Assembly (NCBI RefSeq): GCF_003790525.1
Contig: NZ_CP033635.1
From: Escherichia coli
GTDB taxonomy: Bacteria; Pseudomonadota; Gammaproteobacteria; Enterobacterales; Enterobacteriaceae
Length of the DNA stretch: 64,000 bases
Direction: 5' to 3' (one strand)
Each line of letters begins with the position of its first letter. Positions within the stretch are counted from its first letter, which is position 1. A program made the translations under genes and the position numbers. Of the stretch, positions 9,512-11,691 are shown in pieces. Below the pieces are notes generated by a model, which ran no database searches, was not told where the DNA came from, and worked only from the letters and a program-made list of their open reading frames with translations.

Positions 9512-10332
9512 GTGTGCCCGGAGTTCAGGGCGGGCATGGATGCTTAAATGAACCGCGAGTCTGTCTGGAATATTGAACCGGTAACTCACGATGAGAAACC
9601 CAACAATCCCACCGGGTGTGACGGTGGAGAACCTGAGCGGCAGTGACCTGCGGCATGCCCGCAGGGTGATGTAACCCGCTGACAACGGGGATTGAGGCGA
9701 GATCACTAAGCCGAGATGATCCTCAAGGTTAAGTACTGAAAGGCTGAAGAACATGAACCCGTTAATCCGCCTCTGTGGGTTGAAAACGTCACCACGGCCT
9801 ACGTGATCTGACAGGCCGTGCAGGAGGAACTGGCAGTGATACGTAAGCACTGCCGGTCGAAGGTGTTTTGACATGTATGCGAAACACCGGGGCAGCAGCG
9901 TCTATCACGCTTGCATTGCTGACTTCTGCCAACTTGCGGCAAGCAAGGATAAAGAGTGCGACGGGCAGCCTCCTCAGTATGCCTGAGTCCAGGCCGGTAA
10001 ACCGGGGAAGGTCAGCGACGGATGTTAAGGGGGCATGGCTCCGATGACGCGCTGGCTGGCGGAGCTTCCGTAGTAGTCCGCGATGGGGAAAGCCCATTAC
10101 ATGGCGAAGGGAAGCAGTTTGAATGTGTTTGCGACGTGAATTAACTGACCTAACGAGGTGAAGACCTTTGATAATCAGCGAAATGCAACGCAAGCTTGCC
10201 ACATGGGCAGCCACCGATCCGTCCCTACGGATTCAACGGCTGCTGCGTCTGATAACACAACCAGAATGACTGGCTGAAGCGGCGCGGATCACGCTTTCAT
10301 CAAAGGGGGCCCATACCCCCGGCGTTGATGGC

Positions 10333-11691
10333 GTGAACAAAACAATGCTACAGGCCAGACTGGCTGTTGAGCTGCAAATCCTCAGGGATGAATTACTCTC
10401 AGGCCACTACCAGCCCTTGCCCGCCAGACGGGTTTACATCCCTAAAAGCAACGGCAAACTGCGACCACTGGGTATCCCCGCGTTGCGGGATCGTATTGTT
10501 CAGCGGGCCATGCTGATGGCGATGGAGCCGATATGGGAGAGTGATTTTCATACGCTCTCATATGGCTTCCGGCCTGAGAGCAGTGTCCACCACGCGATCC
10601 GCACGGTGAAATTACAGCTCACAGACTGTGGTGAAACCCGGGGACGCTGGGTGATTGAAGGCGACCTGTCCAGTTACTTCGACACCGTACATCATCGACT
10701 GCTGATGAAGGCTGTACGCCGCAGGATCAGTGACGCACGTTTCATGACTCTGCTGTGGAAAACCATCAAGGCGGGACATATCGATGTCGGTCTCTTTCGG
10801 GCGGCCAGTGAAGGTGTGCCACAGGGCGGTGTTATATCGCCGCTATTATCGAACATCATGCTGAATGAGTTCGATCAATACCTGCATGAGCGCTACCTGA
10901 GCGGGAAAGCCAGAAAAGATCGGTGGTACTGGAATAACAGTATCCAACGGGGCCGAAGTACGGCGGTCAGAGAAAACTGGCAGTGGAAACCCGCGGTGGC
11001 GTACTGCCGCTATGCCGATGATTTTGTCCTCATCGTCAAAGGCACCAAAGCACAGGCGGAAGCCATCAGGGAGGAGTGTCGGGGTGTGCTCGAAGGCAGT
11101 CTGAAACTCAGGCTGAACATGGATAAGACTAAAATCACCCATGTTAATGACGGCTTTATCTTTCTGGGGCACAGGATCATTCGCAAACGCAGTCGTTATG
11201 GCGAGATGCGAGTGGTCTCAACGATCCCGCAGGAGAAAGCCAGAAACTTCGCCGCATCGCTGACAGCACTGTTATCAGGCAACTACAGTGAAAGCAAAGT
11301 CGATATGGCTGAACAACTCAACCGAAAACTGAAAGGCTGGGCCATGTTCTATCAGTTCGTTGATTTTAAGGCCAAAGTCTTCAGTTATATCGACCGTGTC
11401 GTGTTCTGGAAGCTGGCTCACTGGCTGGCCCGCAAATACCGTACAGGTATCGCTTCCCTGATGAGGTGGTGGTGTAAATCACCGAAACCGGGTCAGAGCA
11501 AAACGTGGGTTTTATTTGGTAAAACCAATCACGGCAAGCTCAGCGGCGAAATACTGTACCGGTTGGTGGGGCAAGGCAAGAAGCTGTTCCGCTGGCGGCT
11601 ACCCGAAGGTAATCCCTATCTGAGGACGGAGACCAGAAACACGTATACATCGCGCTTTACAGAAGTGGCAATGGCGTTCGCCAGCATTTAA
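10333..11691 (+). CDS. group II intron-encoded reverse transcriptase/maturase (N-terminal region disrupted upstream)
   Basis: RT motifs including YADDFV (RT5) and maturase X domain; no endonuclease domain; upstream RT0 frame carries TGA at 10267-10269. Confidence 0.8.
   Translation: MNKTMLQARLAVELQILRDELLSGHYQPLPARRVYIPKSNGKLRPLGIPALRDRIVQRAMLMAMEPIWESDFHTLSYGFRPESSVHHAIRTVKLQLTDCGETRGRWVIEGDLSSYFDTVHHRLLMKAVRRRISDARFMTLLWKTIKAGHIDVGLFRAASEGVPQGGVISPLLSNIMLNEFDQYLHERYLSGKARKDRWYWNNSIQRGRSTAVRENWQWKPAVAYCRYADDFVLIVKGTKAQAEAIREECRGVLEGSLKLRLNMDKTKITHVNDGFIFLGHRIIRKRSRYGEMRVVSTIPQEKARNFAASLTALLSGNYSESKVDMAEQLNRKLKGWAMFYQFVDFKAKVFSYIDRVVFWKLAHWLARKYRTGIASLMRWWCKSPKPGQSKTWVLFGKTNHGKLSGEILYRLVGQGKKLFRWRLPEGNPYLRTETRNTYTSRFTEVAMAFASI

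Follow-up and report, generated by a model that had tools for sequence, protein, structure and literature searches.

The group II intron at 9512-11781 (+ strand, 2270 nt) of the window, the 64,000-nt stretch of Escherichia coli DNA analysed here, carries an ltrA gene in which the codon for Trp29 has become a TGA stop. We interpret the feature, with a probability of about 85%, as a decaying, vertically inherited copy of E.c.I4 that interrupts an IS3-family transposase gene within a chromosomal island; the intron is catalogued, and this is an ordinary, pseudogenised example of it. In the mechanism that we favour, a single G-to-A transition changed TGG to TGA on a copy that already carried a missense change, R133S. 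Deprived of its own maturase/reverse transcriptase (RT), such a copy would be unable to promote its own splicing or retrohoming, and would be spliced or mobilized only if another copy within the cell supplied functional E.c.I4 protein. The sequence of such a copy would also be open to overwriting, or to being copied elsewhere, by recombination with other copies.

Identity and setting of the intron

The intron begins with GTGTG (9512-9516), which fits the conserved GUGYG 5' end, and finishes with ...CTAC at 11781, which fits the AY 3' end. Alignment with a copy that has a different 5' exon showed identity beginning at 9512, with diverged flanks, while identity with a copy that has a different 3' exon stopped by 11783. 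The bounds 9512 and 11781 are confirmed, since these are the points at which copies with other exons begin and cease to match. Domains V and VI (11695-11781, + strand) gave a full-length match to Rfam RF00029 (Intron_gpII) of 64.9 bits, against a gathering score of 40, and do not differ from those of intact copies. When the TGA was read as Trp, the conceptual translation of ltrA matched only RVT_1 (residues 86-332, 7.9e-34) and GIIM (residues 356-421, 1.3e-10) in Pfam, with no HNH or DNA endonuclease domain among the matches. The element thus combines the GUGYG/AY ends, domains V/VI and an intron-encoded protein (IEP) with RT and maturase (X) domains that characterize group II introns, with two features of E.c.I4: a specific insertion site in the orfB of an IS3-family transposase and an IEP that lacks an endonuclease.

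We identify the intron as E.c.I4 (bacterial class A), a name that it takes from the published target sites and the description of the MG1655 fragment rather than from alignment to a database reference. E.c.I4 is an Escherichia/Shigella intron found at a specific position in IS3-like transposases (IS629, IS911, ISEc16 and ISEc31), and MG1655 carries a fragment of it (PMC3522654, Leclercq and Cordaux). The ORFs of E.c.I4 and S.f.I1 belong to class A, which is among the En-less classes (PMC3552965, Toro and Martinez-Abarca). Thousands of copies annotated as ltrA in E. coli are 99.4-99.8% identical to the window intron, and in strains derived from K-12 the match, annotated ykfC, covers the first 76% of the query. 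Neither a second intron copy nor a helper gene was found in the 64,000-nt window.

The 5' exon (8719-9511, + strand) is the left part of an IS629/IS1203-like IS3-family element, comprising orfA, an ALIL frameshift pseudoknot (9052-9168) and the start of orfB; its best uninterrupted matches are annotated as the IS1203 family. The 3' exon (11782-12269, + strand) is the right part of a different IS3-family element, ISEc52/IS911-like, its matches being annotated as ISEc52 or the IS911 family. Similarity of this exon to the identical copy in strain 2452 (L001) ends at 12269, and to one of the ORF-intact copies (L002) at 12265. When joined, the exons stay in the orfB frame across the junction, which follows ...ADFTY, and other copies of the intron occupy the same position in IS629-like and ISEc52/IS911-like elements. 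The locus runs from sugar-utilization genes through an IS1414 remnant and the IS::intron to a type I restriction-modification operon. No complete E. coli genome was found to hold the joined exons as a single unbroken IS, and we therefore read the host element as a chimeric IS. In strain MS 119-7 an intact IS629-like element occupies this locus, and directly after it come the final 45 nt of the intron and the 3' exon seen here. Given this arrangement, and because the exons derive from two distinct IS elements, the present IS::intron, to judge from these comparisons, is a recombination product and not a simple retrohoming event.

Two substitutions in the ribozyme mark the lineage in the alignment: A at 9915, where the other compared copies have G, and C at 9995, where most copies have A (both + strand). 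In an RNAalifold consensus of four related copies, 9915A replaces a predicted C-G pair (columns 388-404) by C-A, and 9995C disrupts the U-A pair that is predicted to close a hairpin (columns 469-484). The fold is plausible, with compensatory changes in only 4 of its 196 pairs, and an ORF-intact copy, that of AR_0085, also has 9995C. We set aside ribozyme damage because the fold is almost without covariation support and because AR_0085 shares one of the changes; the predicted mispairs would be a weak hint of such damage.

The ltrA reading frame and its two lesions

The ltrA pseudogene, which would encode the RT/maturase, occupies 10183-11691 (+ strand, PGAP coordinates), and would have 502 codons if the TGA were TGG. 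Translation from 10150 gives a single continuous frame, in which ...SEMQRKLATWAATDPSLRIQRLLRLITQPE is followed by a stop and then by LAEAARITLSSKGAHTPGVDGVNKTM...; the fuller reading is LTR, a stop, RPLIISEMQRKLATWAATDPSLRIQRLLRLITQPE, a stop and LAEAARITLSSKGAHTPGVDGVNKTM... Between 10150 and 11691 the only in-frame stops are those at 10159, which lies upstream of the start, at 10267, and the natural TAA at 11689. From GTG 10333 the list of ORFs gives an open frame to 11691. The premature stop itself is the TGA at 10267-10269 (+ strand), which is followed by C and so stands in a UGA-C context.

In intact copies the codon is TGG, with G at 10269, and encodes Trp29 of a 502-aa product (WP_001189111.1) that starts at the equivalent of ATG 10183; PGAP annotates this protein in three of the copies compared (L002, L003 and L007). 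Against intact copies the alignment contains no indels across the whole intron, and the ORF differs from theirs only at 10269, where A replaces G (W29 to stop), and at 10579, where A replaces C (R133S). For the copy in strain 2452, which is 100% identical to that of the window, PGAP records an ltrA pseudogene with an internal stop and makes no mention of a frameshift. Disruption of ltrA in this intron sequence is thus already known, since public RefSeq/PGAP annotation flags it as a pseudogene.

These data bear directly on a preliminary description of the region, which had seen two lesions near the N-terminus of the IEP. Its first observation, an in-frame TGA at 10267-10269 where a Trp codon (TGG) would fit, is borne out both by translation and by the TGG of intact copies. 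The second, a frame discontinuity near 10199-10201 that would separate the only upstream ATG from the RT frame, arose from an off-by-one reading error. The ATG had been placed at 10182; it lies at 10183-10185, in the same frame as the RT ORF (10333 - 10183 = 150). Between 10183 and 10345 there is no indel relative to intact copies, the sole substitution is that at 10269, and PGAP gives 'internal stop' only, so that this interval contains one lesion and not two. A frameshift is ruled out by direct translation and by the indel-free alignment. The broader claim that the IEP is disrupted near its N-terminus holds: intact homologues have TGG, the TGA allele is present in 53 records (see below), and PGAP calls the gene a pseudogene. 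The preliminary description missed the change at 10579, which lies further downstream.

Relatives that are ~85-96% identical over the 5' part of the intron (L004, L014 and L015, from an Enterobacter plasmid, a Salmonella Infantis plasmid and E. coli D8) also have TGG at the position of the stop, and keep MQRKLATW..., (Q/R)PEWL and FRPERS. Since TGG is found in intact copies and in these more distant relatives, it is the ancestral codon. We considered whether Trp29 is conserved family-wide and rejected this: the aligned residue in LtrA is Ile, the alignment with GsI-IIC stops short of the position, and Trp is confined to E.c.I4 and its near relatives. What gives the position its importance is solely the stop that now occupies it.

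The second lesion is at 10579-10581 (+ strand), where alignment to intact copies shows AGC instead of CGC, replacing Arg133 of the FRPERS block by Ser. Arg133 aligns with a conserved Arg (FRPQRS, FRPGRN, FRPNRC) in all four of the solved group II intron RT alignments displayed, namely those of LtrA (5g2x), the GsI-IIC RT (6ar1) and two related RT chains. An autonomous copy would have an uninterrupted IEP frame and intact RT residues. Here the frame is broken by the TGA at codon 29, PGAP's 'internal stop', and although YADD is present (RYADDFVLIV), the Arg of FRPxR is Ser. Because the TGA arose on a copy that carried R133S at a conserved RT residue, ltrA was probably already impaired before the stop was gained. 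Taken together, the two changes make it very probable that the copy is unable to make a working maturase/RT, and it is a reasonable inference, drawn already in the preliminary description, that the copy is immobile or trans-dependent; its splicing and mobility would then depend on E.c.I4 protein from another copy.

From the native start only 28 codons precede the stop, or 33 if translation begins at TTG 10168, an in-frame codon five codons upstream of ATG 10183 that is possibly the true start. TTG 10168 is the sole start codon with a good Shine-Dalgarno sequence upstream (GAGGU, 10155-10159; the whole signal spans 10155-10170, + strand), the anti-SD duplex having an energy of -7.2 kcal/mol as compared with -0.6 kcal/mol for ATG 10183; moreover, the RPLIISEM reading is conserved in relatives. 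A DIVa-like hairpin was predicted around the Shine-Dalgarno sequence and start, but it was no better than those of shuffled sequences (z = -1.5) and was not used.

The preliminary description had also proposed a truncated IEP made from GTG 10333 (codon 51) or ATG 10345 (codon 55), and a functional RT/maturase restarted in this way would be an alternative to loss of the protein. In E. coli, translation is known to restart downstream of early nonsense codons. Both candidate codons (10333-10347, + strand) are indeed in frame, the ORF from 10333 is open to 11691, and the products would have 452 aa and, by codon count, 448 aa, respectively. That part of the proposal stands; what is poorly supported is initiation, for both codons lack a Shine-Dalgarno match (-1.7 and -1.8 kcal/mol, as compared with -7.2 kcal/mol at the native site), and they lie 64-76 nt beyond the stop. 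Some intron proteins without the N-terminal extension still aid splicing (PMC6144810). Nevertheless, the restart products would miss residues 1-50 or 1-54, including the RT0/N-terminal region. By alignment, the counterpart of residues 18-50 in solved group II intron RTs is their N-terminal region, and the products would lack the SSKGAHTPGVDG block of this region, which is conserved with LtrA, the GsI-IIC RT and other solved RTs. They would also lack the region that aligns with the N-terminal extension, which in LtrA binds the high-affinity site DIVa of the intron RNA and serves as a high-affinity RNA anchor (PMC6144810). The shorter start is used by no related intact intron, all of which keep MQRKLATW... 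We regard a functional truncated protein as highly improbable, and a copy that has lost its protein remains the better description.

Frequency of the stop allele and exchange between copies

A query consisting of the intron and short flanks (2351 nt) had matches covering at least 80% of it in 1873 of the 5426 complete E. coli genomes, and in 1517 PLSDB plasmids of Escherichia, Klebsiella, Salmonella, Enterobacter and further genera. The frequency of the stop was then estimated with a 61-nt probe centred on 10269 and required to match exactly. The probe was found in 53 of the 2708 segment-containing records of complete E. coli genomes, nearly all the others being one base off, and in 3 of 1459 PLSDB plasmid records. 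The 53 records derive from humans, pigs, chickens, frogs, water and sediment, from several countries and from independent laboratories, and most share the chromosomal island of the window.

This distribution disposes of the idea, raised in the preliminary description, that the TGA is a sequencing error. In such a case the A at 10269 would be a fault of this record's sequencing or assembly and the gene would be intact; repeats are prone to polishing errors, and two sister isolates, SEV1 and SEV4, differ at 10269. Yet the exact 61-mer recurs in 53 records from independent laboratories, most of them at the same chromosomal locus, and the TGA is linked to the lineage markers 9915A and 9995C. We give an artefact almost no credence: a one-off sequencing error is excluded, and the allele is heritable.

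The R133S allele (10579A) was matched exactly in 150 of 2617 records, and is carried by 23 of the 28 TGA records that were among the records listed in that search. The chromosomal copy of SCZE5 has 9915A, 9995C and 10579A yet retains TGG, and is the expected intermediate. Strain LR-72, whose first 20 kb otherwise matches the window almost completely, carries the TGA together with a 1-nt deletion at 10393 and is annotated 'frameshifted; internal stop'. TGG is found at this locus in SEV1, SCEC020022 and AR_0085. The simplest history suggested by these haplotypes is that the chromosomal copy gained R133S, then the stop at codon 29, with further decay in places.

The same observations bear on whether the stop could be leaky, with Trp-tRNA reading the UGA-C and restoring Trp, so that some full-length protein is made at a low level and the copy is weakly autonomous. 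Readthrough gives only a small fraction of the normal product, and that product would still carry Ser133 at a conserved RT residue. UGA with C at +4 terminates inefficiently, and tRNA-Trp misreads UGA in E. coli (PMC5289835), where Trp-tRNA competes with RF2 at this codon (PMC10570021); readthrough would, moreover, restore the wild-type residue. However, the LR-72 frameshift in the same gene suggests that there is no selection for the frame, and the TGA allele is derived and rare. Traces of full-length protein, with the original Trp and Ser133, may still be made, but we consider meaningful function by this route unlikely, and prefer decay of a copy that no longer makes a working protein.

All four combinations of TGG or TGA with 10579C or 10579A exist. 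These mosaic haplotypes indicate either gene conversion between copies or artefacts of polishing in repeated sequence. The intron on plasmid pTEM1-GZEC065 is base-for-base identical to the chromosomal TGA copy of GZEC065, while its exons are different; at the insertion site used in pTEM1-GZEC065, the sister plasmid pSCZE2 carries a mosaic intron with TGG. SEV1 and SEV4 come from the same source and have near-identical coordinates, their only difference being a patch from 9915 to 10269 that includes the stop (TGG in SEV1). A probe for a donor allele in SEV1 (10211T) was uninformative, as the allele is common (1055 records).

Because the same TGA intron sits in a second exon context on the GZEC065 plasmid, the null IEP allele appears able to spread between copies, most likely via gene conversion. 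Alternatively, the TGA intron may have reached this plasmid by retrohoming with protein supplied in trans. The second exon context could also signal an allele that is still mobile, which counts against the decay reading. Whether chromosomal and plasmid copies of E.c.I4 in one cell convert often enough to copy or repair a null IEP allele is a further proposal, which we advance tentatively and think rather less probable than its negation; GZEC065 is a candidate case of copying, and the SEV1 patch restoring TGG, as compared with SEV4, a candidate case of repair. If either conversion or retrohoming in trans operates, what becomes of an intron copy would depend on all the copies that its cell contains and not on its own ORF, and the mosaic haplotypes could interest those who model the dynamics of mobile elements.

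Comparison with known systems

The practical consequence of our analysis is one of labelling: the gene is correctly described as an ltrA pseudogene with a nonsense and a missense change, not a frameshift. As a clean, dated example of stepwise decay in a bacterial retroelement it is routine, and matters little beyond annotation.

Among proteins of solved structure the best match is LtrA, encoded by Ll.LtrB of Lactococcus lactis, with residues 18-235 of the IEP aligning with LtrA 24-234 (E = 2.2e-52). As in Ll.LtrB, the ORF would be placed in domain IV, a short way into which its Shine-Dalgarno sequence and start codon would fall. In contrast, LtrA has DNA-binding and endonuclease domains, whereas the E.c.I4 IEP has neither, and the function of the N-terminal extension, known for LtrA (PMC6144810), is only inferred for the E.c.I4 IEP.

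The closest likeness is to E.c.I4 itself and to the 99%-identical S.f.I1, which share the IS3-family type of target and an IEP with RT and X/maturase domains but no endonuclease; the 99.4-99.8% identity noted above holds for ORF-intact copies. The window copy differs from E.c.I4 in the stop at codon 29, R133S, the two ribozyme substitutions and its exons from two different IS elements. Whereas the ykfC copy of E.c.I4 in K-12 is truncated, the window copy is point-mutated. By description it resembles the published full-length E.c.I4 copies with disrupted ORFs in SMS-3-5 and S. flexneri 2457T (PMC3522654). Disrupted and fragmentary E.c.I4 copies have been read as inactivated copies carried on mobile elements (PMC3522654). 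The window copy fits the wider pattern described for group II introns of Enterobacteriales, which are acquired, proliferate and are then inactivated (PMC3522654).

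Origin of the IS and intron sequences

The group II intron (9512–11781, plus strand), identified as E.c.I4, is flanked by exons that belong to different IS3-family elements: the 5' exon (8719–9511) is IS629/IS1203-like, while the 3' exon (11782–12269) is ISEc52/IS911-like. The two exons joined as a single uninterrupted IS were found nowhere in the complete E. coli genomes searched. In MS 119-7 (L013, 3001–4839), the intron's final 45 nt directly adjoin an intact IS629-like element at this locus. The arrangement implies that copies of the intron or of the IS have recombined.

The intron haplotypes are themselves mosaic across the compared copies, as seen between the plasmid and chromosomal copies of GZEC065, between the two copies in SCZE5 (L017 and L018) and between the sister isolates SEV1 and SEV4. 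In GZEC065, the plasmid intron (L009) is 100% identical to the chromosomal copy carrying the TGA stop codon (L016), although their exons differ, and SEV1 (L006) and SEV4 (L012) are distinguished solely by a 355-bp patch that contains the stop codon. These patterns suggest either gene conversion between intron copies or artefacts of assembly polishing.

Two records listed as plasmids, the 17-kb linear Salmonella record CP101360.1 and the 353-kb NZ_MG591698.1, have the island context of the E. coli chromosome. Common to both are the porin, the IS with the intron inserted (IS::intron) and its TGA, and hsdM. Instead of being true plasmids, the two may be wrongly assigned contigs of a chromosome, or they may reflect contamination.

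Genomic surroundings

Upstream of the IS::intron lies a sugar-utilization cluster (1–7687) encoding an alpha-galactosidase, an MFS transporter, a GH32 hydrolase, a crr-like PTS IIA, a kinase (annotated as aminoimidazole riboside kinase) and a carbohydrate porin; a truncated IS1414 (7924–8721) marks its end. Directly downstream is a type I restriction-modification operon comprising hsdM, hsdS, a DUF4268 gene and hsdR (12462–20443). In other strains, ISVsa5 interrupts hsdM, or different defence-related genes occupy the locus, such as MADS in SCZE5.

Rfam lists two tandem Sib antitoxin RNAs (53140–53289 and 53516–53665), an FMN riboswitch (57131–57279), a tRNA gene (32244–32316, minus strand) and an IS102 RNA (23988–24224); these are core-genome and IS features that bear no relation to the ltrA stop. 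A 40-codon ORF in the ribozyme part of the intron (10022–10144), annotated in SEV4 as a ‘hypothetical protein’ (WP_001406634.1), is probably a spurious gene call.

Start site and decay of ltrA

The annotated ltrA start, ATG 10183, has no Shine–Dalgarno match. The sole good match (in 10155–10170) lies 8 nt upstream of TTG 10168, which is in frame with ltrA. The real start of the intron-encoded protein may be five codons upstream of that called by PGAP.

In LR-72 (L005), the genome that matches the window most closely, ltrA carries an extra 1-nt deletion (equivalent to 10393), and three more substitutions separate the two sequences; in some strains, therefore, decay of this copy has gone further. 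The preliminary description rightly placed a TGA (10267–10269) in the disrupted N-terminus of ltrA, but overlooked another ltrA lesion, Arg133Ser (10579–10581). The Ser133 allele, seen in 150 records of E. coli, seems to be older than the stop codon; Arg133 itself is conserved in all four displayed alignments with solved group II intron RTs.
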